Source of the DNA: Candidatus Heimdallarchaeum aukensis
Lineage (GTDB): Archaea > Asgardarchaeota > Heimdallarchaeia > Heimdallarchaeales > Heimdallarchaeaceae
DNA: 64,000 bases
Assembly (NCBI GenBank): GCA_021513695.1
Contig: CP084166.1
Location: 1,120,001-1,184,000, forward strand
Direction: 5' to 3'
Shown here one piece after another: positions 1 to 51,768 of the stretch (its first letter is position 1; each line of letters starts with the position of its first letter). The notes under the pieces are model-generated. The model searched no databases. It had not been told where the DNA came from and saw only the letters and a list, made by a program, of their open reading frames with translations. Both the position numbers and the translations under genes were made by a program.

Positions 1-559
1 TAAACGTAGGGCAAAGTTACAGTCAATCTATGACAAGCAAGGATTAACCACCTGGGGAAGAAAAATGTTTCAACTCCAGTTAGAACGAATGTGTAAAATC
101 ACCAACTATTTCCATAAAGCAAGTAGAAAAATAGTAGACTATTGTTCAGAAAAAAACATTGATACGATAGTTATAGGTTACAACCCCCGATGGAAACAAG
201 AAGTGATTATGGGTAAAAAGAATAATCAAACCTTTGTTTTTATACCCTTCAAATCGCTAATTGACAAAATCACTTACAAAGCAGAAGAAAAAGGAATAAA
301 AGTTCTTCCTACCGAAGAGTCCTACACCTCTGTCTACAGTTTCTTGGATAATGAAGAGATAGCTTTCCACCTCCATTATGCTGGTAAAAGAATCCATCGT
401 GGACTATTTATCAGTACCAGAGGATTAAAAATTAATGCTGATATCAACTCTGCAGGTAATATCGGTCGCAAAGTATTCCCCACGTTATTCTCTGTTATGT
501 CTAACTACGGGATAGTCTGGGGTGCAGTGGTTCACCCCGTCCGTTGGAAAATAAGTTAG
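1..559 (+). CDS. tnpB: TnpB (IS200/IS605 OrfB family) C-terminal fragment, truncated by window start; copy of 9850..10728
   Basis: Nucleotide and protein near-identity to 10171..10728. RuvC-II E (TEESYTS) and RuvC-III D (ADINSAGNIGRK) motifs are present. The reading frame continues upstream of position 1. Confidence 0.8.
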   Translation, partial: KRRAKLQSIYDKQGLTTWGRKMFQLQLERMCKITNYFHKASRKIVDYCSEKNIDTIVIGYNPRWKQEVIMGKKNNQTFVFIPFKSLIDKITYKAEEKGIKVLPTEESYTSVYSFLDNEEIAFHLHYAGKRIHRGLFISTRGLKINADINSAGNIGRKVFPTLFSVMSNYGIVWGAVVHPVRWKIS

Positions 560-682
560 TTAGTTGAGTTAGTTAGTCCAGCTCTTACGCTGTTCTTTCT
601 TTCTCTTTATTTTTCGACCGACTAAACTTACTCTTTCTTCCGATTTTTAATCAAAATCGGAATTTGGGAAAAGGTAAACCAT
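1..682 (+). mobile_element. Right part of IS1341-like (solo tnpB) element, copy 1; right end at ~682
   Basis: Homology with copy 2 extends ~120 nt past the tnpB stop and ends at ...GGTAAACCAT (682) in both copies. The conserved subterminal hairpin CCGATTTT-TAATC-AAAATCGG is at 640..660. Confidence 0.7.
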
Positions 683-8572: not shown

Positions 8573-9349
8573 ATGTCCCAGAAAAAAACTGAATTCCTTG
8601 AACCTGTTTTATCTAATGATTTAATAGTCACATTAAACGCTGCAATTGGTGAGCGAATGCTAATTTTAGCAGGCAGCTGTACAGCTTTTTTTGATGGAAG
8701 AATAAAGTCTACTTTAGAATTAGGAGAGAGGATATTAATAATTAAAAAAGACCTATCCATATTAATGCATGGAGTTTCAGGGGTAAAACCTTTAAATTGG
8801 CAAAAGCCAAATCAAGGGCCAATTTCATTTCTAAAAGAGAAAAATGAATTAGTTATGTACACAAAAAGGAAAAAAACAGAAGAAGAGTTATGGATTAGAT
8901 TTCGTTCTATTGATTTTGTTATTTTATGGTCAGGTAGCGATTTTTCTTCTTTAGAGATTTATGGGGATGAATCTGACCTTGTTCAATATCTCGTAAAACA
9001 TCCCTCAATAATTGAAAAGGATTTGCAAATTCTTTCTACAGAATACCCAACTGATGTAGGATTTGTTGACATTAAAGCTCTTGATAGCAAGAAAAGACTG
9101 ATTATTATTGAAGTAAAAAAACGTAACGCTACACCTTCAGATGCTTTTCAGTTAAAAAGATATAAGGACTATTTTGAAAATATCGAAAATAAAAAAATTA
9201 GAGCTATACTTGTTGCTCCTTCTTTCCCTGACAAAGTAAAAAAATATTTAGAGATAAATAACTTAGAATTTCAAGAAGTAGATTGGAAAAACATCTTTCC
9301 CACTATTTCTAGAGAAAAAAATATGAAAATTGATGATTTCTTTTTCTGA
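8573..9349 (+). CDS. nucS: endonuclease NucS/EndoMS (mismatch-specific RecB-like nuclease)
   Basis: Collinear similarity to archaeal NucS: GERILIIKKDLSILMHG, NWQKPNQG, GFVDIKALD...IIIEVKKRNA...QLKRYKDYF, AILVAPSF (RecB-like D-E-K nuclease core). Confidence 0.85.
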   Translation: MSQKKTEFLEPVLSNDLIVTLNAAIGERMLILAGSCTAFFDGRIKSTLELGERILIIKKDLSILMHGVSGVKPLNWQKPNQGPISFLKEKNELVMYTKRKKTEEELWIRFRSIDFVILWSGSDFSSLEIYGDESDLVQYLVKHPSIIEKDLQILSTEYPTDVGFVDIKALDSKKRLIIIEVKKRNATPSDAFQLKRYKDYFENIENKKIRAILVAPSFPDKVKKYLEINNLEFQEVDWKNIFPTISREKNMKIDDFFF

Positions 9350-10845
9350 AATTATGAAGTTATAGAAAAAGTTGAAAAAAGAAGAAAGAAAGGGAGAGGA
9401 AAGAAAGCGGAGGAGAGAGGAAAGGAGGGAAAATGAGGAGTTTAAATAGTGAAAAAAAGTAAAAATGAATGAATGAGAAAATGAGGAAAAAGGTGTGGCG
9501 AACTGAGGAAATATGGGGGAAAGAATCGATCACTCTAAAGCAGTTGGCACACCAGGTAAAAAACTTGTATAATCAAGCAAATTACATTATTAAGTATCAG
9601 TTAAGAAAAAGTAAATATTTCACGAGAGAGTTCGAACTGATGAATATTTTAAGGTATCACCCGACCTACACAGCACTACCTGGTCATACGGCACAACAGA
9701 CGATAAAGTTTCTATGTTTAGCGTGGAAAGGGTATTTTAGGTCTTTAGAAGAATGCAAAAAAGAACCAGAAAAGTTTAATGGTAAACCCCGTCCTCCAAA
9801 ATAGAAGAAGAAAGATGGACTTGCTATAATCTATTTTACTAACTCTCAAGTGAAAATTAAAGAAGAAAAAGAGCAAGAAAAAGAAAAATTTTTTATCTCT
9901 TTCCCTAAACGTGTAGGACTAAAGATAGTTACAAGACTGTGTCCTTCAACGAAAGTGAAGTTTGCCCGTCTTATACCTATGGGAACGAAATTTAAATTAG
10001 AGATAGTTTACGAGAAAGAGATAGAAGAACGAAAAAAACGACATGCAGAAAGAGTTCTAGCTCTTGATCTGGGAGTGAATAACCTTGTAGGCGGGTTAAC
10101 CACTATTCCTGGTGAAAAAGGTTTTCTGATAAATGGTAGACCCATTAAAGCTGTTAATCAGTGGTTTAATAAACGTAGGGCAAAATTACAGTCAATCTAT
10201 GACAAGCAAGGATTAAACACCTGGGGAAGAAAAATGCTTACTCTCCAGTTAGAACGAATGTGTAAAATAGCTGACTATTTCCATAAAGCAAGTAGGAAGA
10301 TAATAGACTACTGTTTAGAAAAAAACATTGATACGATAGTTATAGGTTACAACCCCAGATGGAAACAGAAAGTGAATATGGGAAAGAAAAATAACCAAAC
10401 CTTTGTTTTTATCCCCTTTAAATCCCTCATTGATAAAATCACTTACAAAGCAGAAGAAAAAGGGATAAAAGTTATTCCTACCGAAGAGTCCTACACCTCT
10501 GTCTGCAGTTTCTTAGATAATGAAGAGATAGCTTTTCACCCCCATTATGCTGGCAAAAGAACTCACCGTGGACTGTTCATCAGTACCAGAGGATTAAAAA
10601 TTAATGCTGATATCAACTCTGCAGGTAATATCGGTCGCAAAGTATTCCCCACGTTATTCTCTGTTATGTTTAACTACGGGATAGTCTGGGCTGCAGTGGT
10701 TCACCCCGTCCGTTGGAAAATAAGTTAGCAAGTTAAGTTAGTCCAGCTCTTATGCTGTTCTTTCTCTTTCTTTTTTTCCACCGACTAAACTTCCTCCTCC
10801 TTCCGATTTTTAATCTAAATCGGAATTTAGGAAAAAGTAAACCAT
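9350..10845 (+). mobile_element. IS200/IS605-family (IS1341-like) element carrying only tnpB; copy 2 (complete)
   Basis: TnpB N- and C-terminal regions are present. GA-rich leader at 9380..9460. The 3' ~120 nt beyond the tnpB stop are conserved with copy 1, including a subterminal hairpin at 10803..10823. Homology ends at 10845. No tnpA. The left boundary is not determinable from one copy. Confidence 0.7.
9469..10728 (+). pseudogene. tnpB: tnpB interrupted by a single in-frame TAG (9802..9804); N-part 9469..9804 and RuvC part 9850..10728 are in the same frame
   Basis: Both ORFs are in frame 1 and separated only by a TAG. The N-part has the typical TnpB helical N-terminus ending GKPRPPK. The C-part has RuvC-I D (LALDLGVNN), RuvC-II E (TEESYTS) and RuvC-III D (ADINSAGNI). 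The zinc-finger cysteines are degenerate. Confidence 0.75.
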
Positions 10846-12396: not shown

Positions 12397-14352
12397 CTAC
12401 TTTTTATTTTCTAACTTTTTTGACCAAGTATCTTTTAATGTAATTATTCTGTTGAAAACTAAATTGTCTTTTGTCGTATCATTATCAATAATGAAATAGC
12501 CCAGTCTTTCGAATTGATATCTTGACCCGATTTCTGCTTTTGCGAGGAATGATTCAACAAAACCCTTGACGATTCTTAATGAATCAGGGTTTATGTAATC
12601 AGTGAAATCTTTTCCTTCCTCTACATCTAAAGGATTTTCTTTCATGAATAATCTATCATATAACCTTATTTCAGCTGGAATAGCATTCTTCTCAGATATC
12701 CAATGGATACTTACTTTTACTTCTGGGTCGTCTTTAGTAGAATTTGATTTTGAATCTGGGTCATAAGAACAGTGTAACTCTTTGATTTTGCCTGTTTTTT
12801 CATCTTTTATTACTTTCTCACATTTTATTGTATAGCTGTATTTTAACTTAACTTTTCGTCCAGGTGCGAGTCTGTAGAAATCTTCAGGAGGTTCTTCTTC
12901 AAAGTCGCTATTATCGATATAGATTACTTTACTGAAAGTTATCGTTCTTTTACCCATTTCTTTGTTTCGAGTATGGTTATCAACTTCGATTTTTTCTTCT
13001 TTATCTTCTGGATAATTAGTTATTATAACTTTTAAGGGTTCAATTACACTCATAACTCTTGGACATCGTTCTTCTAGATCTTCTCTTATGTAATGTTCTA
13101 AAATTGATAAATCAACTATTCTTTCTCTTTTGGATACACCTATACCATCGGTGAACTTCTTTATTGCTTCAGGAGTAACTCCTCGTCTTCTGAAGGCAGC
13201 TATCGTAGGCATACGGGGGTCATCCCAACCATCAACATATCCTTCATTTACTAAGCGTAGCAATTTTCTTTTACTCATCACAGTATAAGAAAGATTTAAT
13301 CTGGCAAACTCTATTTGCTGTGGATGAAAGATTGGATTACCTTCTTCATCTTCTAATTGATCAAGAAACCAATCGTACAATTCTCTATGTACCTCAAATT
13401 CCAAGGTACAAATAGAATGAGTTATTCCTTCAATAGAGTCTTCTAAACCATGAGCCCAATCATATAATGGATATATACACCATTTATCCCCAGTGTTATG
13501 GTGAGTTTTATGTAATATTCTGTAAATTATAGGATCCCTCATTAAGAGGTTAGGGTGTGACATATCAATTTTAGCTCGTAAGACTTTTTCTCCATCAGCG
13601 AACTCTCCGTTCTTCATTCTTTCAAATAAATCGAGATTTTCTTCTATGCTTCTATTTCTATATGGGCTCTCTTTTCCTGGTTCTGTTACTGTCCCTCTTA
13701 ATTTCCTTATTTCCTCAACACTCAAATCGTCAACATACGCTTTCCCTTTTTTAATTAGTTGAACTGCATACCCATATAATTGGTCAAAATAATCAGAAGC
13801 AAAGAAGAGTCTATCTTCCCAATCAGCTCCTAGCCATTTAACATCCTCAATAATTGATTTCACGTATTCTTCCTCTTCAGTAATAGGATTAGTGTCATCA
13901 AACCTGAGGTTGAATTTACCATTATACTCTTTTGCTATCCCATAATTGAGGTTAACAGAAACAGCATGTCCAATATGTAGGTACCCATTTGGTTCTGGAG
14001 GAAAACGAGTATGAACTCTTCCATTATATTTACCCGTTTTCATATCTTCGTTTATTATTTTACGGATGAAATCAACTTCTTTTGTCTCTTTTACTTCTTC
14101 TTTTTCTTCCGAAAGTAGCTCAGGGTATTTGCGTTGAATAAGTTGCTTAGTTTCATCTAGAGGTTGTGCATTGAGTTTTTCTATCATTTTATGTGCAATT
14201 TCCTTCAATTCTTTTGCACGACCTCGAAACTCTGGATGGTTTGACATTAATTTACCCATCACAGCGCTAAGTTTCGCGTTGCCAAATTCTAGAATATTCT
14301 CTAGTACATATTTTTCAATGATGTCTTCTTCGGAATTCATTGTGACATACAT
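12397..14352 (-). CDS. glnS: glutaminyl-tRNA synthetase, bacterial/eukaryotic type, with N-terminal YqeY/GatB-like extension
   Basis: Collinear strong similarity to E. coli GlnRS: [17 protein letters not shown] (HIGH), [41 protein letters not shown] (KMSKS), [11 protein letters not shown]-terminal anticodon-binding beta-barrels ([17 protein letters not shown]). About 110 aa of N-terminal extension. Confidence 0.85.
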
Positions 14353-21152: not shown

Positions 21153-21440
21153 TTAGCTTCTTCGGAGTGTAATGTCGATAGTACTTACAGTCTTTACTCC
21201 AGTGTCAGTTTCTATCTCTTCAGAGCCTATTTTGATGTCATCAATTTTGATTTGTTCAGCTAGGAATTTGCGAGTACTAATTTCTGCTACATCTACAGCT
21301 TTGCTTATTGAACGACCACGAGCTTTGAGAATACATTCATCAGCTCCTTTGTTAAAGATAGTCACTACCACTAGACAGTAAGACATTGTTCCTTTTCTAC
21401 CGATGTAAATTACTTGTTGATCTTGTTGTTCTTCAGACAT
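21153..21440 (-). CDS. albA: Alba (Sso10b) DNA/RNA-binding chromatin protein
   Basis: VIYIGRKGTMSYCLVVVTIFNKGADECILKARGRSISKAVDVAEI closely matches the Alba consensus (IRIGKKPVMNYV...GADEV.IKARGRAISRAVDVAEI). Confidence 0.85.
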   Translation of the reverse strand: MSEEQQDQQVIYIGRKGTMSYCLVVVTIFNKGADECILKARGRSISKAVDVAEISTRKFLAEQIKIDDIKIGSEEIETDTGVKTVSTIDITLRRS

Positions 21441-21541: not shown

Positions 21542-22093
21542 TTAAGGCTTATATCTATCAAATAAGAAAAAGTGCAGTTTTCCTTTCATTTTTGTGGCTA
21601 AAACAAAGTTTTTTCTTACTGTGGTTGCAAGCCGTCCAGCTCTAACTAATTCAATTGGATTAATAGAGCCTTCTTTCTTTATAATTTGAACAAGATAAGG
21701 AGAGTGTTCTAATCCTGGGCCTTTAGTATAAACAGCAAAGTCAGTACCAAACTTCAATCCAGGTTTAACAACATAACCTTTTTCTCTTAAATGGTTGTAA
21801 ACCTCCATTTTCTGGTCAAAATTGATGTGATTTTCGCGACATCGTTTAAGAAACTGCTCTTTATCCAAAAGATTACCCTCTTCATCAAAGATCTCAATTA
21901 TCTTCTTTTCTTGGAGATAAAAAGCTTCAAAGTAAGACAACTCTAAAGGGTCTCTAAATTCATCACCGATATTAGGCTTTCTGACACCTATGGGCTTACC
22001 ATAAAAACCATTATTGTATAGCCAAGTTCCTTTTTCTAAGTCCCATACGACTACTCGGTTGCCAATAAATTGAGCTTTAATTAGTTCATTCAT
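21542..22093 (-). CDS. endA: tRNA-splicing endonuclease EndA (likely start at MNELIKAQ; the track ORF extends to 22153)
   Basis: Catalytic domain YVVKPGLKFGTDFAVY, HSPYLV and VRAGRLATTVRK align with the M. jannaschii EndA motifs (YIVKTGLKYGADFRLY, HSVYLV, VRVAHSVRK). Confidence 0.8.
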   Translation of the reverse strand: MNELIKAQFIGNRVVVWDLEKGTWLYNNGFYGKPIGVRKPNIGDEFRDPLELSYFEAFYLQEKKIIEIFDEEGNLLDKEQFLKRCRENHINFDQKMEVYNHLREKGYVVKPGLKFGTDFAVYTKGPGLEHSPYLVQIIKKEGSINPIELVRAGRLATTVRKNFVLATKMKGKLHFFLFDRYKP

Positions 22094-22188
22094 TCTTGTT
22101 ACTAGTGATATAACCATTTTTATTTTTATGTTTTTTAGTGAAAAAAACCACAAAAAATAAAGATAATGACGATTTTATTTAATTATAG

Positions 22189-27495: not shown

Positions 27496-27570
27496 TTGGT
27501 AGTCCCCAGGAGATTTGAACTCCTGCCCCCGGATCCAGAGTCCGGGATCCTTGCCACTAGACTAGGGGAC
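27496..27570 (-). tRNA. tRNA-Gln (anticodon CTG), CCA encoded
   Basis: Cloverleaf with A1:U72, 7-bp acceptor stem, anticodon stem CCGGA/TCCGG and loop CUCUGGA. T-arm AGGAG-TTCAAAT-CTCCT. 3' end GGGGACT-A-CCA. Confidence 0.9.
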
Positions 27571-27606
27571 TCTAAATTACAAGCGGTAACAAAGGATTGG
27601 AAAAGA

Positions 27607-27681
27607 TGGTAGTCCCCAGGAGATTCGAACTCCTGCCACCGGATTCAAAGTCCGGAATCCTTGCCGCTAGACTAGGGGACT
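27607..27681 (-). tRNA. tRNA-Gln (anticodon TTG), CCA encoded
   Basis: Same scaffold as the neighbour, with anticodon loop CUUUGAA, T-loop TTCGAAT and D-loop AGCGGCAA. A1:U72. Confidence 0.9.
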
Positions 27682-27751: not shown

Positions 27752-29266
27752 ATGCTTTATAAACTATTAAATTTTTTTGATTTTTTTCGACTTTTTTCTT
27801 TTTTTCTTTCTCTCATTCTTTTTCCTTATCAAAAAATAAATAAGAGTAAACTTACATTTTATATTATTATGCTTATAAAAACTGGTATTAATGAGCTTGA
27901 CCAGATGATTGATGGTGGTTTACGTACCCATTATTGTTATTCTATCAAGGGTTCTGCTGGTGCTGGTAAGACTGTTTTATCTATTTTTCTTGCTTGGGGT
28001 GCTCTCAATCAGGACATCCCTGTTGTTTTTATTAGTACTGAGATTGAACCTGATCGTATTATTCATTATTTTCACTCTTTTGGTCTTCCTGTTGAGGACT
28101 ACATTGACCGAGGGTTATTAGTCATTGATAAGATGTCTTTGAAGTCTTCTGGTGAGGAGATTATCCAGACTAACAGTTTTGATTTATCAGGTATTATTTT
28201 ACGTGTTACTAAGAAGATTGAGCGTATTCGAGCTAAGTTGGTTATTTTTGATTCTCTTTCTGCTTTTATTGCTGACTTTGAGTATAAAGACACTGCCCGT
28301 AGTAAGTATATTGATTTTATTAAGCGCATTACTAGTTTAGATACTTCTTTAATTATTACTATTGAGTGTGACCCTATTACTAGCAGTTCTCAGATTGACT
28401 ATTTAGTTGACGGTGTTATTGCTTTAAAGACCGAATTAATCAACAATCAGCTAATCAAGAAGATTTCTGTTCCTAAATTAAGAGAAGCCAAGCCTTTAGT
28501 TTATGAAAACCGTTATACTATTACTCAGAAAGGTTTTAGGATTTTCAAATCTGAGAGCGAGCCTTTGTTTACCGTTGATCGTTCTACTGGTATTAAGGTT
28601 TTGGACAATCTTTTAGGTGGAGGTATTGCTCGAGGTTCTGTTGTTTTAGTTGAGATCAATGGTGAGATTAATTATTTTCCTTTCTTCTTGACTCTTCTTT
28701 ACAATTATTTAACTCTAAACCATGGTGTTATCATTCATTCCAATGTTCAGATGAATGTTAATCGTATTTTGGAGGAGTTTGAGCGAGGTCAGTGTGACAT
28801 TTCTGACTACTTACGTGATGGTAATATTGTCTTTTTGGATAAGTACAATCGTTCTGTCACTGCTGTTGAAGCTAAAGAGATTCGTGATATGATTAACTTA
28901 GATGACATGTTAGCTATTACTGTTGAGATGATGCAGGCTTTTGGTTCTGACACTGAAGTTGTTGTTTTTGGTGATCTTACTGATGATGTTAACATTTTGA
29001 ATGAGCGTGATTTCTTAAAATTGTTTGCTCTTCAGTCTTACAACATTAAGGAGCATAATGCTATTTCCTTTTCTTTTATCAATTACAATGCTGTTGACAA
29101 AAAAATTCTCGCTCGTTTACGTACCACCTCTGATGTTATCATTCGTTTATCGCGTGAAAATTATTCTAACTACATTGAATGTTTGAAGAGCACTACTGGT
29201 GCTACATTTCTTGCTAAGAATATTGAATTTAAAAAAAGTTATCCTATGATTGAAATTGTTGAGTGA
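27752..29266 (+). CDS. KaiC-like tandem RecA-superfamily ATPase (N-domain with Walker A, degenerate C-domain); true start possibly at 27869 (MLIKTGINELDQ)
   Basis: GINELDQMIDGGL...IKGSAGAGKT (Walker A) in domain 1. Domain 2 (GIKVLDNLLGGGIARGSVVLVEINGE) lacks a P-loop. The first ~39 codons of the ORF are low-complexity and hydrophobic. Confidence 0.7.
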   Translation: MLYKLLNFFDFFRLFSFFLSLILFPYQKINKSKLTFYIIMLIKTGINELDQMIDGGLRTHYCYSIKGSAGAGKTVLSIFLAWGALNQDIPVVFISTEIEPDRIIHYFHSFGLPVEDYIDRGLLVIDKMSLKSSGEEIIQTNSFDLSGIILRVTKKIERIRAKLVIFDSLSAFIADFEYKDTARSKYIDFIKRITSLDTSLIITIECDPITSSSQIDYLVDGVIALKTELINNQLIKKISVPKLREAKPLVYENRYTITQKGFRIFKSESEPLFTVDRSTGIKVLDNLLGGGIARGSVVLVEINGEINYFPFFLTLLYNYLTLNHGVIIHSNVQMNVNRILEEFERGQCDISDYLRDGNIVFLDKYNRSVTAVEAKEIRDMINLDDMLAITVEMMQAFGSDTEVVVFGDLTDDVNILNERDFLKLFALQSYNIKEHNAISFSFINYNAVDKKILARLRTTSDVIIRLSRENYSNYIECLKSTTGATFLAKNIEFKKSYPMIEIVE

Positions 29267-29275
29267 GGAAGTATT

Positions 29276-29524
29276 ATGCACAAGATTTTATACTTCAAGA
29301 GCAAAACTTGTAACTGGTGTCCTTTTGTCGAATCGATTTTAAAGAAGATTGTTTCTGAAAAATCTACTTTAGAGTTAGAAGTTATTGATATTGAAGAAAA
29401 TTATGAAATCGCTGAAAAGTATAATATTATCGCTGTTCCTACTATTATTCTTCCTAACTCTACTAAAATTGTTGGTGCTACCGATGAAACTTTTCTACGC
29501 CAGCAGTTATCATTTTTTTTGTGA
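29276..29524 (+). CDS. thioredoxin/glutaredoxin-like small redox protein (CNWC active site)
   Basis: 82 aa with a CxxC (CNWCP) at the start of helix 1 and a cis-Pro-like AVPT motif. Confidence 0.6.
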   Translation: MHKILYFKSKTCNWCPFVESILKKIVSEKSTLELEVIDIEENYEIAEKYNIIAVPTIILPNSTKIVGATDETFLRQQLSFFL

Positions 29525-29641
29525 TTGGTGAGAACTGCTTTCTTTTTGTTCTTTTTTTTGGTAAATTGTTTTTTTCGTTCTTTAATTCTACTTTCATCTC
29601 TATAAGAAAACTCTTTAAATTCTTTTCTTTTTTGTAAATTA

Positions 29642-32266
29642 ATGACTTGGTCCTTAAATGATTCAAAGCTTATCTATGGTGTTGATCAAAACGATCTTTA
29701 TTTTTTAGATATTAATGATCAAGGTGAACTTTTACTTAAGCTTAAGGATCAATCTATTTCTTTTAATGAAATCATCAATCTTGTTAAGTCTCAGTTTAAC
29801 TCTTCTTCTCTCTCTTCTGTTCCTTCATTTACTCTTCGCATTCCTCAATTAATAACTGAACAAATTTCCAAACTTAACACTTGTTTCCAGTCTGCTATTC
29901 ATCAATATCAATATTCTGGCAATTTTCAAGGCATCTATCCTATTAAAGTTAATTCTTTGAGTTATGTTCTTGAAACTATTAAAGCGAACAGTCCTTCCTA
30001 TGCTTTTGAAGCTGGAACTGTTAATGAATTAGATGTTTTGCTTTCTCTTCTTCGTGATGATAAAACTCGTATGATAATGTGTAACGGTGTTAAAGATTCA
30101 GACTATATAGATAAGATTAGAGGAGCTCTTAACGATGGTTATTCTATTGTTATTAGTTTGGAGTCATGCTCTGAGTCTACTACCATTCTTGATTTAATAG
30201 ACCATGATTTACTTAAACTTGCTTTGAGAATCAAACCCTATCCCACTGTTAAATCTCATTGGGGAAGTTCTTCTGGTCGCGATTCTAAATTTGGTTTATC
30301 TATTCATGAATTTAAGCGCATTATTAATTTGTTAGAAAAAAGAGGAGTAAAGGATAAAGTTATTGCTATTCACGCTCATCCTGGTTCTCAGATTATTGAT
30401 ATTGATGGTTTAAGGTTCTTTGTTCTGTATCTTTCAAACAGGTATTTAGAACTTAAGCGTCTTGGTTTCACCAACCTTAACAATATAGACTTTGGTGGAG
30501 GTATACCTATTAATTATGATAATAGGTTACCCTCTGACATTTTAGATAATTATGTTAAAACGCTTGTATTAACTCTAAAAGAGACTATCACCGATTCTGA
30601 CGTTCAACCTAATATTTGGATTGAAGCAGGAAGGTTTCTTACTGCTCCCTCTTCCTTAATTATTGTTGAAACTATTGCTCTTTACTCTATTTTCCCCTCT
30701 GAAGAGAGTTTAAATGACCATAAGGCTATGATTAGCTCAATGCTTGAAAAAATCACTCATCCTTCTTCGATACTTAATTTATTTTCTCATTGGACTGAAT
30801 TACAATCTCCTACAATCGACTCAAATGTTAACGAAATCTTGAAGACTGAAATTTTGATGAAACACTTAAAATTAGCTATCAGAGAAAAAATGATGAATTT
30901 TGATGATGAGCAAAAGTTCAACAGGATTTTTGATTTAGATTTGGATGAGATATTCTATGAGATTTATTCCCCTGAACATATCTTAATCGGTAATTTCAGT
31001 GTTTTCAATACTATTATTGATTGGTTACTTGTTGGTCAATATTTTCCTATTCTTCCTATAGACAATCTTGATCATCAACCTGTTTCTTTAGCTAGATTGG
31101 TGGATAAAACATGTGATTCTGATGGTGAGATATCTATTTACCATCCTGTCTTTAATGAAGAAAAGATTTTGTATACCAAGGATGGTTTTCCATTAACAGT
31201 CAAAGACAAGAAATTTAATCTCATGGGCTTTCCTATTGGTTGTTTGCCTACTAATTTCCCATATTATTTAGTTATTGCTTTAACAGGTGCCTACCAAGAT
31301 AACATTAAGATGCATCACAATCTAATTGAGCCATTAAGTAGTATTATTATCAAGCATGAGAATGGGCAGTGGACTATTACTAGCAGTTCTCAGATTGACT
31401 ATTTAGTTGACGGTGTTATTGCTTTAAAGACCGAATTAATCAACAATCAGCTAATCAAGAAGATTTCTGTTCCTAAATTAAGAGAAGCCAAGCCTTTAGT
31501 TTATGAAAACCGTTATACTATTACTCAGAAAGGTTTTAGGATTTTCAAATCTGAGAGCGAGCCTTTGTTTACCGTTGATCGTTCTACTGGTATTAAGGTT
31601 TTGGACAATCTTTTAGGTGGAGGTATTGCTCGAGGTTCTGTTGTTTTAGTTGAGATCAATGGTGAGATTAATTATTTTCCTTTCTTCTTGACTCTTCTTT
31701 ACAATTATTTAACTCTAAACCATGGTGTTATCATTCATTCCAATGTTCAGATGAATGTTAATCGTATTTTGGAGGAGTTTGAGCGAGGTCAGTGTGACAT
31801 TTCTGACTACTTACGTGATGGTAATATTGTCTTTTTGGATAAGTACAATCGTTCTGTCACTGCTGTTGAAGCTAAAGAGATTCGTGATATGATTAACTTA
31901 GATGACATGTTAGCTATTACTGTTGAGATGATGCAGGCTTTTGGTTCTGACACTGAAGTTGTTGTTTTTGGTGATCTTACTGATGATGTTAACATTTTGA
32001 ATGAGCGTGATTTCTTAAAATTGTTTGCTCTTCAGTCTTACAACATTAAGGAGCATAATGCTATTTCCTTTTCTTTTATCAATTACAATGCTGTTGACAA
32101 AAAAATTCTCGCTCGTTTACGTACCACCTCTGATGTTATCATTCGTTTATCGCGTGAAAATTATTCTAACTACATTGAATGTTTGAAGAGCACTACTGGT
32201 GCTACATTTCTTGCTAAGAATATTGAATTTAAAAAAAGTTATCCTATGATTGAAATTGTTGAGTGA
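29642..32266 (+). CDS. chimeric ORF: biosynthetic arginine decarboxylase (SpeA-like) residues 1..~579 fused in frame to the C-terminal half of the KaiC-like ATPase; a product of the tandem duplication
   Basis: The N-part is identical to 32644..34375 (SpeA). The C-part is identical to 28374..29266 (KaiC-like C-domain). The junction is at 31373/31374. Confidence 0.6.
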   Translation: MTWSLNDSKLIYGVDQNDLYFLDINDQGELLLKLKDQSISFNEIINLVKSQFNSSSLSSVPSFTLRIPQLITEQISKLNTCFQSAIHQYQYSGNFQGIYPIKVNSLSYVLETIKANSPSYAFEAGTVNELDVLLSLLRDDKTRMIMCNGVKDSDYIDKIRGALNDGYSIVISLESCSESTTILDLIDHDLLKLALRIKPYPTVKSHWGSSSGRDSKFGLSIHEFKRIINLLEKRGVKDKVIAIHAHPGSQIIDIDGLRFFVLYLSNRYLELKRLGFTNLNNIDFGGGIPINYDNRLPSDILDNYVKTLVLTLKETITDSDVQPNIWIEAGRFLTAPSSLIIVETIALYSIFPSEESLNDHKAMISSMLEKITHPSSILNLFSHWTELQSPTIDSNVNEILKTEILMKHLKLAIREKMMNFDDEQKFNRIFDLDLDEIFYEIYSPEHILIGNFSVFNTIIDWLLVGQYFPILPIDNLDHQPVSLARLVDKTCDSDGEISIYHPVFNEEKILYTKDGFPLTVKDKKFNLMGFPIGCLPTNFPYYLVIALTGAYQDNIKMHHNLIEPLSSIIIKHENGQWTITSSSQIDYLVDGVIALKTELINNQLIKKISVPKLREAKPLVYENRYTITQKGFRIFKSESEPLFTVDRSTGIKVLDNLLGGGIARGSVVLVEINGEINYFPFFLTLLYNYLTLNHGVIIHSNVQMNVNRILEEFERGQCDISDYLRDGNIVFLDKYNRSVTAVEAKEIRDMINLDDMLAITVEMMQAFGSDTEVVVFGDLTDDVNILNERDFLKLFALQSYNIKEHNAISFSFINYNAVDKKILARLRTTSDVIIRLSRENYSNYIECLKSTTGATFLAKNIEFKKSYPMIEIVE

Positions 32267-32275
32267 GGAAGTATT

Positions 32276-32524
32276 ATGCACAAGATTTTATACTTCAAGA
32301 GCAAAACTTGTAACTGGTGTCCTTTTGTCGAATCGATTTTAAAGAAGATTGTTTCTGAAAAATCTACTTTAGAGTTAGAAGTTATTGATATTGAAGAAAA
32401 TTATGAAATCGCTGAAAAGTATAATATTATCGCTGTTCCTACTATTATTCTTCCTAACTCTACTAAAATTGTTGGTGCTACCGATGAAACTTTTCTACGC
32501 CAGCAGTTATCATTTTTTTTGTGA
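32276..32524 (+). CDS. thioredoxin-like protein, duplicate copy
   Basis: Identical to 29276..29524. Confidence 0.6.
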   Translation: MHKILYFKSKTCNWCPFVESILKKIVSEKSTLELEVIDIEENYEIAEKYNIIAVPTIILPNSTKIVGATDETFLRQQLSFFL

Positions 32525-32643
32525 TTGGTGAGAACTGCTTTCTTTTTTTTGTTCTTTTTTTGGTAAATTGTTTTTTTCGTTCTTTAATTCTACTTTCATC
32601 TCTATAAGAAAACTCTTTAAATTCTTTTCTTTTTTGTAAATTA

Positions 32644-34401
32644 ATGACTTGGTCCTTAAATGATTCAAAGCTTATCTATGGTGTTGATCAAAACGATCTT
32701 TATTTTTTAGATATTAATGATCAAGGTGAACTTTTACTTAAGCTTAAGGATCAATCTATTTCTTTTAATGAAATCATCAATCTTGTTAAGTCTCAGTTTA
32801 ACTCTTCTTCTCTCTCTTCTGTTCCTTCATTTACTCTTCGCATTCCTCAATTAATAACTGAACAAATTTCCAAACTTAACACTTGTTTCCAGTCTGCTAT
32901 TCATCAATATCAATATTCTGGCAATTTTCAAGGCATCTATCCTATTAAAGTTAATTCTTTGAGTTATGTTCTTGAAACTATTAAAGCGAACAGTCCTTCC
33001 TATGCTTTTGAAGCTGGAACTGTTAATGAATTAGATGTTTTGCTTTCTCTTCTTCGTGATGATAAAACTCGTATGATAATGTGTAACGGTGTTAAAGATT
33101 CAGACTATATAGATAAGATTAGAGGAGCTCTTAACGATGGTTATTCTATTGTTATTAGTTTGGAGTCATGCTCTGAGTCTACTACCATTCTTGATTTAAT
33201 AGACCATGATTTACTTAAACTTGCTTTGAGAATCAAACCCTATCCCACTGTTAAATCTCATTGGGGAAGTTCTTCTGGTCGCGATTCTAAATTTGGTTTA
33301 TCTATTCATGAATTTAAGCGCATTATTAATTTGTTAGAAAAAAGAGGAGTAAAGGATAAAGTTATTGCTATTCACGCTCATCCTGGTTCTCAGATTATTG
33401 ATATTGATGGTTTAAGGTTCTTTGTTCTGTATCTTTCAAACAGGTATTTAGAACTTAAGCGTCTTGGTTTCACCAACCTTAACAATATAGACTTTGGTGG
33501 AGGTATACCTATTAATTATGATAATAGGTTACCCTCTGACATTTTAGATAATTATGTTAAAACGCTTGTATTAACTCTAAAAGAGACTATCACCGATTCT
33601 GACGTTCAACCTAATATTTGGATTGAAGCAGGAAGGTTTCTTACTGCTCCCTCTTCCTTAATTATTGTTGAAACTATTGCTCTTTACTCTATTTTCCCCT
33701 CTGAAGAGAGTTTAAATGACCATAAGGCTATGATTAGCTCAATGCTTGAAAAAATCACTCATCCTTCTTCGATACTTAATTTATTTTCTCATTGGACTGA
33801 ATTACAATCTCCTACAATCGACTCAAATGTTAACGAAATCTTGAAGACTGAAATTTTGATGAAACACTTAAAATTAGCTATCAGAGAAAAAATGATGAAT
33901 TTTGATGATGAGCAAAAGTTCAACAGGATTTTTGATTTAGATTTGGATGAGATATTCTATGAGATTTATTCCCCTGAACATATCTTAATCGGTAATTTCA
34001 GTGTTTTCAATACTATTATTGATTGGTTACTTGTTGGTCAATATTTTCCTATTCTTCCTATAGACAATCTTGATCATCAACCTGTTTCTTTAGCTAGATT
34101 GGTGGATAAAACATGTGATTCTGATGGTGAGATATCTATTTACCATCCTGTCTTTAATGAAGAAAAGATTTTGTATACCAAGGATGGTTTTCCATTAACA
34201 GTCAAAGACAAGAAATTTAATCTCATGGGCTTTCCTATTGGTTGTTTGCCTACTAATTTCCCATATTATTTAGTTATTGCTTTAACAGGTGCCTACCAAG
34301 ATAACATTAAGATGCATCACAATCTAATTGAGCCATTAAGTAGTATTATTATCAAGCATGAGAATGGGCAGTGGAATGTTTTATATTATAGAGATAAATA
34401 A
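32644..34401 (+). CDS. speA: biosynthetic arginine decarboxylase (SpeA; PLP-dependent fold-III decarboxylase)
   Basis: YPIKVN, HAHPGSQI and DFGGG motifs characteristic of SpeA. About 585 aa. Confidence 0.8.
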   Translation: MTWSLNDSKLIYGVDQNDLYFLDINDQGELLLKLKDQSISFNEIINLVKSQFNSSSLSSVPSFTLRIPQLITEQISKLNTCFQSAIHQYQYSGNFQGIYPIKVNSLSYVLETIKANSPSYAFEAGTVNELDVLLSLLRDDKTRMIMCNGVKDSDYIDKIRGALNDGYSIVISLESCSESTTILDLIDHDLLKLALRIKPYPTVKSHWGSSSGRDSKFGLSIHEFKRIINLLEKRGVKDKVIAIHAHPGSQIIDIDGLRFFVLYLSNRYLELKRLGFTNLNNIDFGGGIPINYDNRLPSDILDNYVKTLVLTLKETITDSDVQPNIWIEAGRFLTAPSSLIIVETIALYSIFPSEESLNDHKAMISSMLEKITHPSSILNLFSHWTELQSPTIDSNVNEILKTEILMKHLKLAIREKMMNFDDEQKFNRIFDLDLDEIFYEIYSPEHILIGNFSVFNTIIDWLLVGQYFPILPIDNLDHQPVSLARLVDKTCDSDGEISIYHPVFNEEKILYTKDGFPLTVKDKKFNLMGFPIGCLPTNFPYYLVIALTGAYQDNIKMHHNLIEPLSSIIIKHENGQWNVLYYRDK

Positions 34402-34462
34402 AACAGATAATTTTATAAACAGTTGTTTTTCATTATCATTCGACCATTTAAAAGAGGACCAT

Positions 34463-34816
34463 TTAATGAGCATGCGAGAATCTATTGTTAAAACGTTAAA
34501 AGAAATAAAAGATGAATATAGAGAAGTTGAGACTACAGACAAAATTTTAGATCTAATCAGTTTAGTTGGTATTGTACTCTTCTTTGTAAGTGCGTTAGTA
34601 ATGAGTTTGAACAATAAAATTAATCCTATCAACATTGCTTTCTCTATCTATCCATTAGCTATTGCTGGTACTGCTACTGCTATACGAATGAAACTTAAAA
34701 AGATAACCAATGAAGAAGAAGCCTCTAGAGTTTTTAGAGAATACATAACAATTGTTAGTTTATTAACAGTATTAGTATTAATTGTGATTTTATTTACTGT
34801 AATAATTTATGTTTAA
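34463..34816 (+). CDS. small membrane protein (2-3 TM); the track ORF starts at 34358 but overlaps the speA end, so a later start is used
   Basis: Hydrophobic helices in the C-terminal two-thirds. Confidence 0.4.
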   Translation, partial: LMSMRESIVKTLKEIKDEYREVETTDKILDLISLVGIVLFFVSALVMSLNNKINPINIAFSIYPLAIAGTATAIRMKLKKITNEEEASRVFREYITIVSLLTVLVLIVILFTVIIYV

Positions 34817-34870
34817 TTCACTTCTTTTTTTAAAAAGTACCACAAATTTTTTTATATACAATATGGTTAT

Positions 34871-36283
34871 TTGTGGACAATGAGTTACAATATTGAAAAG
34901 CAATATACTAGAGTTATTAAATATGGTATGAGTTTAGGTGTGAGGAGAGTATTTGAAACCGTTGTTTTTGCAGTTACTATCTTTAGTATGACTTTTATTT
35001 ACCTTTATGTACTTTTTACTGAAAATGTTTCAGCTATTGGAAAATACATTTTCTTTCCTATTGGAATATTTTTAGAGATTGTGCTTATTTTAGCATACAT
35101 TGAAAACCATTATAGCATAGAGATTTTTGGTGAGATTGTTACAAAATTTTTCACTATCCTTAGCATTTTATCTCTTTTAATGATAGTTATTTATTCTTCT
35201 ATTCCCGCACTCTATACTACCAGAACACTTGATGGAGTAAACACTTCTCTTTTAGTTATTTACTTTATTTTAGTTGTTGTTGAAACGGGCTATTTTTTGT
35301 ATTCTGTTCCTAGAGGCGAGTTATCTGAGTCTTTTGGAATGGAGAAGCAGTTTTCTATTTTGGAAAAGAAACTAAAAAGCATTGACTTAGATTCCTTACC
35401 TGTTGAAAAGGCAATTAAAAAAGGAATTGAGACTTTAAAGAAGAAAGTTTCTGAGAATGGTGTCTGGGGTTCTTTAAATCCCCTTTATGAGACTGCAATG
35501 GTACTAGATTTTTTCCATTCCCAGAATTATGAAATAGATTCATCTTGGACTATTAAGACTTCTCAAGGCAAAAAAATTGTTTCTCTAAAGAATTCATTTG
35601 ACTATATCTCCACGATCGTTGACATGCTTGAAGAATCTGAAATTTCTTACGAACAATTGTACATTCTATATGTTGTTAGCTTATTTGACCCTTCAACTCT
35701 TGACCCTCACCTTAATTTGATTGAAAACTTCAAAAATGAATTAAAAGAGGAAACTGAATGGGATTTTATTAATTCTCTTAATCAATTTTCTCCAAACATC
35801 AGATCAAGAAGTAGTCCTAACCATTTTGTTTTCGCTTATATTGCTGATGTAATTGGAGATATAGAGTTATTAGATCGAATTTCTATGTTATTTACAAAAA
35901 GCATAGACATTATAATCAAAAGAGGTTATTCTCGATTTTCTACATCAAAAACAGGAAGAACACCTATGGAAATGTTTGCTCGATTAATGTTGACCTTATA
36001 TCACATTAGAAGAATGCCACCTAAAAGGCAAGAATTTCTAAAAGCTGTTCAGCAAACTCAATTTATCGAAGGAAGCTGGGAAGATGATATAGGAACAACA
36101 GGCTATGTTATGCAATCCTTAATTCCAAGCGAAACAATTGAATCCATGCCCTTAAAGAAAGGTACTCTATACTTGCTTGCGATGCAAGATAAGGAAGGAA
36201 TGTGGAACGGTAGTATTGAGGAGACAATAATTGCTCTTAAAACACTTATTCAAGTCAGGAAATTCATTGAAGAACAAGTCTAA
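34871..36283 (+). CDS. membrane-anchored protein with possible prenyltransferase/terpene-cyclase-like (alpha-alpha toroid) repeats
   Basis: About 4 N-terminal TM helices, then a soluble domain with repeated aromatic-Gly motifs (ENGVWGSL, EGSWEDDIGTTGY, KEGMWNGS). The domain call is weak. Confidence 0.4.
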   Translation: MWTMSYNIEKQYTRVIKYGMSLGVRRVFETVVFAVTIFSMTFIYLYVLFTENVSAIGKYIFFPIGIFLEIVLILAYIENHYSIEIFGEIVTKFFTILSILSLLMIVIYSSIPALYTTRTLDGVNTSLLVIYFILVVVETGYFLYSVPRGELSESFGMEKQFSILEKKLKSIDLDSLPVEKAIKKGIETLKKKVSENGVWGSLNPLYETAMVLDFFHSQNYEIDSSWTIKTSQGKKIVSLKNSFDYISTIVDMLEESEISYEQLYILYVVSLFDPSTLDPHLNLIENFKNELKEETEWDFINSLNQFSPNIRSRSSPNHFVFAYIADVIGDIELLDRISMLFTKSIDIIIKRGYSRFSTSKTGRTPMEMFARLMLTLYHIRRMPPKRQEFLKAVQQTQFIEGSWEDDIGTTGYVMQSLIPSETIESMPLKKGTLYLLAMQDKEGMWNGSIEETIIALKTLIQVRKFIEEQV

Positions 36284-36354: not shown

Positions 36355-37155
36355 ATGGCAGATATTATTCACATTTTACTATACATTCAAACAGCAACAG
36401 TAATATTATGTTTATTATATGGTTCTATTATAGACATCTTTAAACGCGAGATTTCTGATATTCCGTGGATTGTTATGGTTGTAGAGGGGATCATTACTTC
36501 CATTCTTATGATTATTTTTTATGAGGACAAAAAAGAGATCTGGAGAATTATAGGAATAAACTTCTCTCTCGCATTAATTATAGGAATAATTATTTATTAT
36601 ACTGGGATCATGGGAGGAGCTGATGCTAAAGCTATAATGGCTTTATCTGTAAATACTGCTATTTTTCCTTTTGATTTTCCATTAACAAAACTAACTGTTT
36701 ATCTTTTCTTACCTCCTGTATTCAATATCTTTTTCAACTGGTTACTTGCGATAATTATTTTTTATCCTATTCCTTTAGCAATTTACAATGTGATTCTGAA
36801 AATTAAAGGAGTAAAACTATTCAATGAAACTCATGCAAATTTCTTTGATAAAATTCTCTCTTTAATCTCAGGTTATGTAATTCAAGTTGAAAAAGCCAAA
36901 GATAGAGTAGATATTGTTTATTCTGAAGTTTATAATCAAAAGAATGAACGTTGGGAAGTTAAACATTTTATGAAGGTAGAAGAACAGGAAGAAGAAGACA
37001 AATTCAAGCGTGAAGTTGAAGAATGGATTGATAAAACTAATAAAAAATACATCTGGGTTAAAGTTCTTCCTCCTGGAATAGTGTTCTTGCTAATAGGTTA
37101 CATCGTTTCATTATTTATTGGGAATCCTTTATTCGCTTTATTTACTATTCTTTGA
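36355..37155 (+). CDS. A24-family aspartic peptidase (archaeal prepilin/preflagellin peptidase, PibD/FlaK-like)
   Basis: Polytopic protein with the second catalytic motif GGADAK (consensus GG[AG]DxK) and an N-terminal Asp region (IDIFKREISD). Confidence 0.65.
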   Translation: MADIIHILLYIQTATVILCLLYGSIIDIFKREISDIPWIVMVVEGIITSILMIIFYEDKKEIWRIIGINFSLALIIGIIIYYTGIMGGADAKAIMALSVNTAIFPFDFPLTKLTVYLFLPPVFNIFFNWLLAIIIFYPIPLAIYNVILKIKGVKLFNETHANFFDKILSLISGYVIQVEKAKDRVDIVYSEVYNQKNERWEVKHFMKVEEQEEEDKFKREVEEWIDKTNKKYIWVKVLPPGIVFLLIGYIVSLFIGNPLFALFTIL

Positions 37156-51703: not shown

Positions 51704-51768
51704 AACTCGGTAAAGGATAAATTTAATATTATTTCTTTTTCTTCTTTCTACCGTTAGGAAGTGACGCT

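Follow-up and report, generated by a model that had tools for sequence, protein, structure and literature searches.

Archaea are described in reviews as lacking GlnRS and as making Gln-tRNA(Gln) only through a non-discriminating GluRS (ND-GluRS) and GatDE, and the missing transfer of GlnRS into archaea has been ascribed to the orthogonality of tRNA-Gln (PMC9499178, PMC8762117, PMC5388404). Archaeal tRNA-Gln, with its GatDE-compatible identity set of A1:U72 and A73 (PMC9499178), has been regarded as orthogonal to GlnRS (Tumbula 2000, cited by both PMC9499178 and PMC8762117). In the literature on GlnRS or GatDE in Asgard archaea, we found one passing mention, of a GlnRS beside cox genes. GlnRS sequences from Heimdallarchaeia are already public as automatic annotations, and GenBank names these proteins after the PRK14703 GlnRS/YqeY model.

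The described enzymes to which we compare the present one are the GlnRS of bacteria (E. coli GlnS, 1GTR and 1O0B; P. aeruginosa, 5BNZ), the archaeal ND-GluRS (M. thermautotrophicus, 3AII; PRK04156), and two kinds of GlnRS with appended domains. In the archaeal ND-GluRS, an N-terminal domain of ~80 residues precedes the Rossmann domain and two beta-barrels; this N-terminal domain goes by the name "YQEY" in the literature. The GlnRS of Deinococcus radiodurans (2HZ7; PRK14703) joins a bacterial-type core to a small helical domain related to the amidotransferase/YqeY tail, which it carries at the C terminus. Eukaryotic GlnRS (yeast Gln4, 3TL4; human QARS, 4YE6) has an N-terminal domain of ~190 residues made of two subdomains, a GatB-like helical part and a tail.

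Here, we report a bacterial-type GlnRS from a Heimdall archaeon, Candidatus Heimdallarchaeum aukensis, encoded in a 64-kb stretch of its genome (the window). Considered as a whole, our sequence data are best explained by a functional, glutamine-specific GlnRS that would charge the organism's own archaeal tRNA-Gln and that is probably a chimera whose core came from bacteria by horizontal transfer; we assign this reading a probability of roughly 0.75. The gene and its parts are as follows.

12397..14352, minus strand: GlnRS gene, a 651-residue open reading frame (ORF list, TIGR00440 and 5bnz matches)
14110..14340, minus strand: appended N-terminal domain, residues ~5-81, a bundle of five helices with homology to the archaeal GluRS "YQEY" N-terminal domain
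14080..14109, minus strand: acidic, lysine-rich linker of ~10 residues (~82-91) between the N-terminal domain and the GlnRS core
13114..14016, minus strand: class I catalytic (Rossmann) domain with insertion, residues 113-413 (Pfam PF00749, tRNA-synt_1c, E=2e-105)
12760..13065, minus strand: first (proximal) beta-barrel, anticodon binding, residues 430-531 (PF03950, tRNA-synt_1c_C, E=4e-29)
12484..12708, minus strand: second beta-barrel, anticodon binding, residues 549-623 (PF20974, tRNA-synt_1c_C2, E=1e-22)

Translation probably starts at Met5 (MNSEED..., at 14340), giving 647 residues, because homologues begin at MNSVE or MKSVE. The NCBIfam glnS model TIGR00440 matches along its entire length (positions 1-524 of 524) and scores 720.3 bits where 425.8 are required, whereas both archaeal GluRS models fall below theirs (PRK04156, 391.7 vs 516; TIGR00463, 400.6 vs 401.75). 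Residues 89-645 align without large gaps to the GlnRS of P. aeruginosa (5bnz, E=4e-201) and E. coli (E=2e-198), with 55% identity to each across the whole core; the core is 64-69% identical to GlnRS from diverse bacteria. The preliminary description of the locus had proposed collinearity with E. coli GlnRS through the catalytic, insertion and both anticodon-binding domains, and not with archaeal GluRS, and these comparisons confirm that the gene encodes a true bacterial-type GlnRS. The protein shares the HIGH and MSK motifs, glutamine pocket, unpairing loop, G36 loop and both beta-barrels with the bacterial enzymes. What sets the protein apart from them is its archaeal host, an additional N-terminal domain plus linker of ~90 residues, and a presumed tRNA substrate with A1:U72 and A73 where bacteria have U1:A72 and G73.

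Bacterial GlnRS sequences can be aligned from residue 89-94 onward, the N-terminal helix that is canonical for GlnRS starts at about residue 92, and the structure model of the appended domain drops to a pLDDT below 50 at its end, in the linker region. The extension had been put at ~110 residues; an extension is indeed present, but its folded part spans ~80 residues, followed by the ~10-residue acidic linker. A profile of the domain matches archaeal GluRS only, including residues 1-75 of the M. thermautotrophicus enzyme (3aii, E=1e-15), and its best GluRS match is from an Asgard archaeon (Odin; 85.6 bits). The domain is universal in the Heimdall clade, and the apparent exceptions are mis-called starts: secondary loss was considered for the forms that seem to lack it and rejected, as both of the two cases checked have an in-frame coding sequence for the domain ahead of the mis-called start.

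The extension had also been described as YqeY/GatB-like and as resembling that of eukaryotic GlnRS. The first of these holds in part, in that the homology is specifically to the archaeal GluRS "YQEY" domain, while direct similarity to YqeY/GatB is weak. A Foldseek search of the PDB with the domain found nothing, 28 N-terminal domains from the clade had no YqeY/GatB match in Pfam (PF09424, PF02637) at E<=10, and hhalign against three YqeY sequences aligned only a G-x-A-x3-VMG-x2-M motif (13 columns, E=0.059, not significant); on this evidence we do not class the domain as YqeY. The general plan, a small helical domain added to a bacterial-type core, is that of the Deinococcus GlnRS, whose appended domain lies at the opposite terminus. 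The Heimdall domain belongs with the archaeal GluRS family, and a relation to Pfam YqeY/GatB_Yqey was not detected. PRK14703 itself is matched only at positions 8-561 of 769, leaving its YqeY part (562-769) unmatched, and the protein ends 6 residues past the core. The second likeness was not upheld: no Pfam family of the eukaryotic GlnRS N-terminal domain matches, and the lengths differ (~80 vs ~190 residues). Because the extension finds its homologue in archaeal GluRS and not in the N-terminal domain of eukaryotic GlnRS, the enzyme is, by homology, a chimera of a bacterial-type GlnRS core and an archaeal GluRS N-terminal domain. Its succession of domains, from the N-terminal domain through the Rossmann domain to the two beta-barrels, is also that of archaeal GluRS.

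As to what the domain does, the "YQEY" domain is without demonstrated function and, in the sole crystal structure of a GluRS that has it, disordered (PMC2978374). A charge analysis seeking a basic RNA-binding surface found the Heimdall domain to be about neutral (mean pI 6.9), which lends no support to generic RNA binding. By analogy with the appended domains of the yeast and Deinococcus GlnRS, it is most likely an auxiliary tRNA-binding or positioning module that would aid the bacterial-type core in handling archaeal tRNA-Gln.

The presumed substrates are the only tRNA genes that ARAGORN and Rfam detect in the window.

27607..27681, minus strand: tRNA-Gln(UUG) (ARAGORN; Rfam RF00005, 63 bits)
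27497..27571, minus strand: tRNA-Gln(CUG) (ARAGORN; Rfam RF00005, 59 bits)

The preliminary description is borne out on both isoacceptors, on A1:U72, on the encoded CCA, and on the distance of 13 kb from the GlnRS gene. tRNA-Gln(UUG) has A1:U72, G2:C71, U3:A70, A73 and C12:G23, and tRNA-Gln(CUG) has the same identity set. Linkage is tighter elsewhere: of 8 other Heimdall loci, which were reached by exact matches to their proteins, 5 have a tRNA-Gln gene no farther than ~2 kb from that for GlnRS. In E. coli (9 kb) and several bacterial phyla, glnS and tRNA-Gln are loosely linked as well; the bacterial loci used as the linkage control, and reused in the tree described below, came from a scan of genome contigs with the protein, which returned bacterial glnS loci only among the matches listed. 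Across the Heimdall loci, the tRNA-Gln genes are of archaeal type, with A1:U72 in 9/9 and A73 in 8/9. Co-transfer of a tRNA-Gln with a bacterial glnS was considered and rejected, since the bacterial neighbors have U1:A72 and mostly G73. The enzyme would charge archaeal-type tRNA-Gln (UUG and CUG) with glutamine directly, providing a one-step route in Heimdallarchaeia.

Such a route might be redundant, with a functional GlnRS coexisting with a retained ND-GluRS/GatDE pathway, and we regard this as a serious prospect of somewhat under even odds. It is favored by the identity elements that the tRNA-Gln genes keep, A1:U72 and A73, and by the occurrence in Heimdallarchaeota of a normal archaeal GluRS with Arg at E. 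coli GlnRS position 229 (protein P0151), whereas GlnRS is strongly conserved throughout the clade, which speaks for its being needed. Some bacteria retain both GlnRS and GatCAB. Neither the window nor ~200 kb of related loci contains gatD, gatE or gltX, but a sample of this size is far too small to inform. That GatDE has been dropped altogether in these archaea, which would make them the first archaeal lineage with the direct route only, seems to us a little less probable again.

The origin of the core was addressed with a distance-based (NJ) tree that contains two eukaryotic sequences only and has a poorly supported bacterial backbone. In this tree, bacterial and Heimdall GlnRS group apart from the eukaryotic sequences (human, yeast) with 100% bootstrap, and the Heimdall proteins form a 100% supported clade nested inside bacterial GlnRS. 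The phylogenetic check suggested in the preliminary description thus places the protein with bacterial GlnRS and not with GluRS. Because the Heimdall proteins make up one such clade, away from eukaryotic GlnRS, the tree points to a single bacteria-to-Heimdall transfer. The core (residues ~92-651) would have been acquired once, in the ancestor of a broad clade of Heimdallarchaeia, and the N-terminal helical domain of ~80 residues would have been recruited from an archaeal, probably Asgard, GluRS, an order of transfer and fusion that we infer. A second bacterial-type GlnRS in Asgard archaea, from an Odinarchaeota metagenome-assembled genome (protein P0101), has a core 67% identical to that of the window and lies on a contig (L093) that carries ribosomal protein L40e, in tandem with an archaeal GluRS that bears the N-terminal domain. 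Lacking the N-terminal extension and branching elsewhere than the Heimdall clade, it was probably acquired independently.

The opposite polarity would make the Heimdall enzyme the ancestral form: a GluRS gene duplicated in the Asgard/proto-eukaryotic lineage would have given rise to a GlnRS that kept the N-terminal domain, this archaeal enzyme would be the source of bacterial, possibly also eukaryotic, GlnRS, and bacteria would have lost the domain. In the classical account, GlnRS is of eukaryotic origin and was then transferred to bacteria, and were the Heimdall form ancestral, this account would need revision. We consider this improbable. The Heimdall clade is nested in bacterial GlnRS in all analyses; with the full outgroup, 0-3% of bootstraps place Heimdall at the base, as do 15% when GluRS serves as the only outgroup, and gamma-proteobacteria branch off first with 71-100% bootstrap across analyses (96% in one). 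Eukaryotic GlnRS, whose core is only 44-45% identical to the Heimdall enzyme and forms a separate clade, is closer to bacteria than to the Heimdall clade, both in identity (human GlnRS, 49.2% vs 44.8%) and in score (464-494 vs 443 bits). Rates of divergence also argue against an ancestral N-terminal domain, with the caveat that this test is affected by saturation and by the choice of GluRS set. Within the clade, the domain is 52% identical and the core 70%, so it evolves faster, and yet it is about as similar to GluRS (34.7%) as the core is (33.0%), and nearly as similar as GluRS N-terminal domains are among themselves (37.6%); it is thus too like them for its rate. Its best match being a present-day Asgard GluRS likewise favors recruitment over ancestry.

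A glutamine-specific GlnRS is also what the active site suggests. The class I motifs HIGH (126-129) and VMSK (358-361) are present, and the glutamine-pocket residues R116, D152, Y297, H301, S313, C315, F319 and Q346 correspond to E. coli R30, D66, Y211, H215, S227, C229, F233 and Q255. R494 (E. coli R402) lies in the G36-recognition loop of the first beta-barrel, and the second beta-barrel has Q613 (E. coli Q517) and R616 (E. coli R520). Across 31 clade members, all eight pocket residues are invariant, and so are K270, R341, R402, Q517 and R520 (E. coli numbering). The archaeal GluRS core is ~32-33% identical and differs at the same sites, lacking Q255 and having Arg at position 229 in 10/10 sequences examined, where the Heimdall enzyme has Cys (residue 315); the G36 loop is missing from archaeal GluRS (PMC2978374). 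Relative to bacterial GlnRS, the clade shows its own substitutions (D235V/I, K72T, N184L, A339C, N368H, K399D, T541I and V542I). The idea that D235V/I adapts the enzyme to base pair 3:70 of the tRNA failed a direct covariation test and was rejected, with Val alongside G3:C70 (P0007), Asp alongside A3:U70 (L061), and Ser (L055) and Asn (L078) alongside G3:C70.

These residues weigh heavily against an enzyme without glutamine specificity, whether a GluRS-like, tRNA-Gln-glutamylating enzyme feeding GatDE (cf. bacterial GluRS2) or one with a non-translational role. Strict retention of A1:U72, a GatDE identity element, in all nine tRNA-Gln genes would suit such an enzyme, as would the near miss of TIGR00463, which owes largely to the N-terminal domain. 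Against this stand the invariant pocket, above all C229 and Q255, the intact G36 loop and anticodon readers, and the 55% identity to biochemically characterized GlnRS, and we consider the idea very improbable.

The gene is archaeal in its setting. As previously claimed for the rest of the window, Pfam identifies archaeal genes on both sides of it: NucS at 8573-9349, Alba at 21153-21440, EndA at 21542-22117, and Arc_PepC_II, an archaeal prepilin peptidase, at 36355-37155. GC content is uniform (0.28-0.38) along the window, an identical gene occurs on an independent Logan contig, and one other locus (L083) shows local synteny with the window. The closest relatives of the protein are dozens of proteins from Heimdallarchaeia metagenome-assembled genomes, in >50 clusters from independent assemblies, and homologues lie on Asgard contigs of 200-550 kb with actin, Arf/Ras and RIO1 genes. 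That the gene is a bacterial contaminant, or was joined to archaeal DNA by an error of assembly or binning, as the 64-69% core identity to diverse bacteria and one clade member labeled "Bathyarchaeia" might suggest, is effectively refuted by this setting, by the gene's position in mid-window, by the clade's own stem branch and by the archaeal-only domain in the protein itself.

A GlnRS conserved across a clade of Heimdallarchaeia contradicts the rule that archaea lack this enzyme. It offers a natural experiment in the adaptation of a bacterial synthetase to a tRNA of archaeal type, possibly by way of a recruited GluRS domain, and has practical relevance to the engineering of orthogonal synthetase/tRNA pairs. 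Heimdallarchaeia are the closest known relatives of eukaryotes, and the finding bears on the origin of eukaryotic GlnRS. On the evidence here, the Heimdall enzyme would not be the ancestor of the eukaryotic one but a separate bacterial import, which cautions against taking it as a eukaryote-like trait.

The preliminary description placed a bacterial-type glutaminyl-tRNA synthetase (GlnRS) with an N-terminal appendage in this archaeal stretch, a finding that proved real and mostly right. The gene and its domains are as follows.

12397..14352, minus strand: GlnRS open reading frame, 651 aa (ORF list)
Residues 113-413, minus strand: class I Glu/Gln catalytic domain (Pfam)
Residues 430-531 and 549-623, minus strand: two beta-barrel anticodon-binding domains (Pfam)

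Because homologues begin at Met5, the start codon is probably at 14340. The protein scores 720 bits against TIGR00440, the NCBIfam GlnRS equivalog model (cut-off 426), and falls under the cut-offs of two archaeal glutamyl-tRNA synthetase (GluRS) models from the same collection. In a search of solved structures, residues 89-645 align over their full span to the GlnRS of P. aeruginosa (E=4e-201) and E. coli (E=2e-198), with weaker matches to human GlnRS (E=2e-131) and archaeal GluRS 3AII (E=2e-64). The collinearity with bacterial GlnRS noted at the outset is thus borne out.

The archaeal surroundings are equally clear. GC content is even along the window, which carries NucS, Alba, the tRNA-splicing endonuclease EndA and an archaeal type-II prepilin peptidase. 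The top database match is a JGI protein (99% identical), followed by over 50 protein clusters (636-651 aa, 63-76% identity), whose named sources are Candidatus Heimdallarchaeaceae, Heimdallarchaeota, 'Gerdarchaeota' or 'Asgard group' MAGs. An independent Logan contig encodes an identical protein with unchanged neighbours. Contigs of the relatives span 200-550 kb and include Asgard hallmark genes: L082 and L086 encode actin, while L084 and L087 encode Arf/Ras GTPases (all four are Heimdallarchaeia GlnRS loci). Another such locus, L083, encodes a 76% identical GlnRS and shares with the window the order P-type ATPase, 241-aa ORF, KaiC-like ATPase, M24 peptidase and GlnRS. The Logan copy, the long Asgard contigs and the L083 synteny rule out contamination or a chimeric assembly.

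The bacterial-type chaperones DnaK (636 aa) and DnaJ (382 aa), a system often imported into archaea, are encoded together at 49793-52917, a further sign of bacterial gene flow into the genome. An exact tandem duplication with a period of ~3,000 nt occupies 28800-34900 (28800-29099 equals 31800-32099 at 100%; 29543-29842 matches 32545-32844 at 99%). Two genes are doubled by it, one for a thioredoxin-like protein of 82 aa (29276-29524, 32276-32524) and one for a PLP-decarboxylase (first copy 29642-32266, 874 aa with a KaiC-like C-terminus; second copy 32644-34401, 585 aa). It is either a very recent event or an assembly artefact.

The origin of the GlnRS core was examined by neighbour joining (n=107, 555 columns, 200 bootstraps). 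The set held 31 Heimdallarchaeia GlnRS, one from Odinarchaeota, E. coli and P. aeruginosa GlnRS from PDB alignments, 62 further bacterial GlnRS drawn from the protein search and translated genome loci, human QARS (100% identical to 4ye6_A), yeast Gln4 (read from that same alignment) and ten archaeal GluRS. GluRS separates from GlnRS at 100% bootstrap. Bacterial and Asgard GlnRS group together with eukaryotic GlnRS outside (100%), and the Heimdallarchaeia proteins form a single clade (100%) with its own stem branch, nested within a poorly resolved bacterial radiation in which gamma-proteobacteria branch first (96%). When the distances were corrected in four ways and the outgroup chosen in three, monophyly of this Heimdall clade held at 89-100%, and trees with the clade branching before every bacterial GlnRS made up 0-3% of bootstraps (15% when the distant GluRS was the sole outgroup). 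The Odinarchaeota GlnRS, which lacks the extension, falls elsewhere among bacteria although its contig is archaeal. The most economical reading is one transfer of GlnRS from bacteria to Heimdallarchaeia. Human GlnRS is 44.8% identical to the clade versus 49.2% to bacteria, and yeast GlnRS 42.7% versus 44.9%; on present evidence, the Heimdall enzyme is not the forerunner of eukaryotic GlnRS.

We mapped the clade alignment onto E. coli GlnRS numbering, at positions whose roles we take to be those described in the E. coli GlnRS literature. All 31 clade members have R30, D66, Y211, H215, S227, C229, F233, Q255, K270, R341, R402, Q517 and R520. In the ten archaeal GluRS, position 229 is always Arg, position 255 is never Gln and the G36-recognition loop is missing, the loop's absence being already reported (PMC2978374); a Heimdallarchaeota GluRS (P0151) shows the expected 'GITHIGRSSEF'. 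This conservation therefore predicts a Gln-specific enzyme that reads the tRNA-Gln anticodon. Clade-fixed differences from bacteria comprise K72T, N184L, A339C, N368H, K399D, T541I and V542I. At position 235, 30/31 clade members have V or I and 45/64 bacteria have D; direct comparison gave no clean match between this residue and the 3:70 pair of the adjacent tRNA.

The N-terminal extension, present as first described, had been likened to the YqeY/GatB-tail domain and to the appendage of eukaryotic GlnRS. Residues 1-111 alone matched no Pfam family; the one solved structure that they hit was M. thermautotrophicus GluRS, at its N-terminus (3aii residues 4-89, E=1e-7). A profile of 28 clade N-domains matched 3aii residues 1-75 (E=1e-15), with no other credible match in the PDB. 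Searched with HMMER against 1.84 billion representatives, it returned 563 matches; the ten full-length ones scanned were all archaeal GluRS (PRK04156), with named sources in Thermoprotei, Nitrososphaerota, Sulfolobales and Heimdallarchaeota. AlphaFold2 models the domain as a confident five-helix bundle (pLDDT 87), for which Foldseek found no match in the PDB. Nureki et al. describe GluRS residues 1-85 as a structurally disordered 'YQEY domain' (PMC2978374). Direct tests for a relationship to YqeY/GatB tails gave little: Pfam found no YqeY/GatB match in the 28 N-domains, and hhalign against three YqeY sequences (that of B. subtilis verified against 1ng6) aligned only a G-x-A-x3-VMG-x2-M motif, weakly (E=0.059). 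Because the GluRS matches are strong and these tests weak, profile similarity firmly identifies the extension as an archaeal GluRS N-domain, and only tentatively as YqeY-like. The eukaryotic comparison is rejected; the domain there is ~190 aa (PMC3333875).

GenBank labels the Heimdall proteins 'GlnRS/YqeY domain fusion protein', but the C-terminal YqeY part of that model (positions 562-769) is unmatched in the window protein. Extension-less or shortened Heimdall entries fall among full-length ones in the tree, and in the two checked (L091 2580-3000 and L092 1-414, from GenBank Heimdallarchaeota MAGs) the reading frame continues upstream of a wrongly called start and encodes the N-domain; the N-domain therefore appears universal in the clade. 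Public annotations of these proteins often start too late, apparently through a fit to bacterial models.

Among clade members, change has been quicker in the N-domain (52% identity) than in the core (70%). Against archaeal GluRS, the N-domain is 34.7% identical and the core 33.0%, and GluRS N-domains are 37.6% identical among themselves; the best match (85.6 bits) comes from an Asgard (Odin) GluRS, the others reaching at most 76 bits. In an Odinarchaeota MAG (GCA_048885365.1; L093 2467-6153), an extension-less bacterial-type GlnRS and an N-domain-bearing archaeal GluRS form a same-strand tandem, on a contig that also carries ribosomal protein L40e. Here both parent types of the chimera are side by side. 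The likeness to GluRS, the Odin tandem and the nested tree position favour recruitment of the N-domain from a resident GluRS after transfer, although the identity test is affected by saturation and not decisive. Judged by its sequence, the window enzyme joins a GlnRS of bacterial descent to an archaeal GluRS N-domain. It is conserved across Heimdallarchaeia, and its gene is linked to tRNA-Gln genes of archaeal type.

Deinococcus GlnRS offers one analogue for an appended tRNA-binding role. By analogy with it and with the yeast Gln4 N-terminal domain (PMC3333875), the N-domain, about neutral in charge, may be an auxiliary tRNA-binding module. Separately, ~700-aa GlnRS in Anaerolineales and Desulfobacterales (L002, L005, L008, L011, L027) bear a ~110-aa C-terminal extension (...DFSKIDLRVA...GKKVIVVANLKPRKMKFG.SEGM...) that by eye resembles a Trbp111/EMAP-type tRNA-binding OB domain; if so, it would be another independently appended tRNA-binding module on GlnRS.

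ARAGORN and Rfam found exactly two tRNAs in the window, the isoacceptor pair reported initially, 13 kb from GlnRS.

27497-27571, minus strand: tRNA-Gln(CUG)
27607-27681, minus strand: tRNA-Gln(UUG)

Both have A1:U72, G2:C71, U3:A70, A73, C12:G23 and encoded CCA, the identity set of archaeal tRNA-Gln (PMC9499178). Of eight further Heimdall loci, five place tRNA-Gln closer to GlnRS:

L082: UUG at +70 nt, CUG at +1.0 kb
L083: CUG at +258 nt
L084: UUG at +232 nt
L086: CUG at +2.0 kb
L089: UUG at -1.0 kb, CUG at +158 nt

L085, L087 and L088 have none within 10 kb. If a 3.5-Mb genome carries two tRNA-Gln genes, the probability that one falls within 2.1 kb by chance is ~0.2%, and within 13 kb ~1.5%. 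The loci are phylogenetically non-independent. In bacteria, tRNA-Gln(CUG) occurs at 8/58 glnS loci, within 200 nt at 6/58 (L032, L035, L045, L049, L058, L078), and in E. coli K-12 a distance of 9 kb separates glnS from all four tRNA-Gln genes (L090, 696430-707757). Linkage thus seems a wider tendency of the gene family. Heimdall tRNA-Gln has A1:U72 and G2:C71 in 9/9 and A73 with encoded CCA in 8/9, whereas bacterial tRNA-Gln beside glnS has U1:A72 and mostly G73; the Heimdall tRNAs are therefore native, and co-transfer with glnS is rejected.

The exception, L086 tRNA-Gln(CUG) at 13978-14052, has G73 and no encoded CCA. In L084 (12059-12229), a tRNA-Lys(CUU) 22 nt from the GlnRS-side tRNA-Gln(UUG) also has A1:U72 and A73, and its acceptor stem is very like that of L083 tRNA-Gln(CUG). 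A dubious ARAGORN call with a 4-nt anticodon lies at L082 16235-16311. The window also holds two TnpB/OrfB_IS605-like ORFs with a Cas12f-like TNB domain (9979-10728, plus strand; 46716-48170, minus strand), one ~1.7 kb downstream of GlnRS, where syntenic L083 has tRNA-Gln; such an element could have caused the relocation of tRNA-Gln 13 kb away.

Neither the window nor related loci (~200 kb) contain gatD or gatE, a sample uninformative for the rest of the genome. Reviews from 2022, in line with the preliminary description, report GlnRS to be missing from all or 'almost all' archaea, and name the orthogonality of archaeal tRNA-Gln as the reason why it was not transferred (PMC9499178, PMC8762117); a 2016 survey of about 2,500 genomes found no archaeal GlnRS (PMC5388404). 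One sentence of a 2024 preprint lists GlnRS among coxABC neighbours in Hodarchaeales and Kariarchaeaceae (10.1101/2024.07.04.601786), and we found no other mention of Asgard GlnRS in literature outside subscription-only sources. The proteins themselves are already in GenBank, automatically annotated and often truncated. A clade-wide archaeal GlnRS contradicts the long-repeated rule that archaea lack this enzyme, and allows clear experiments.
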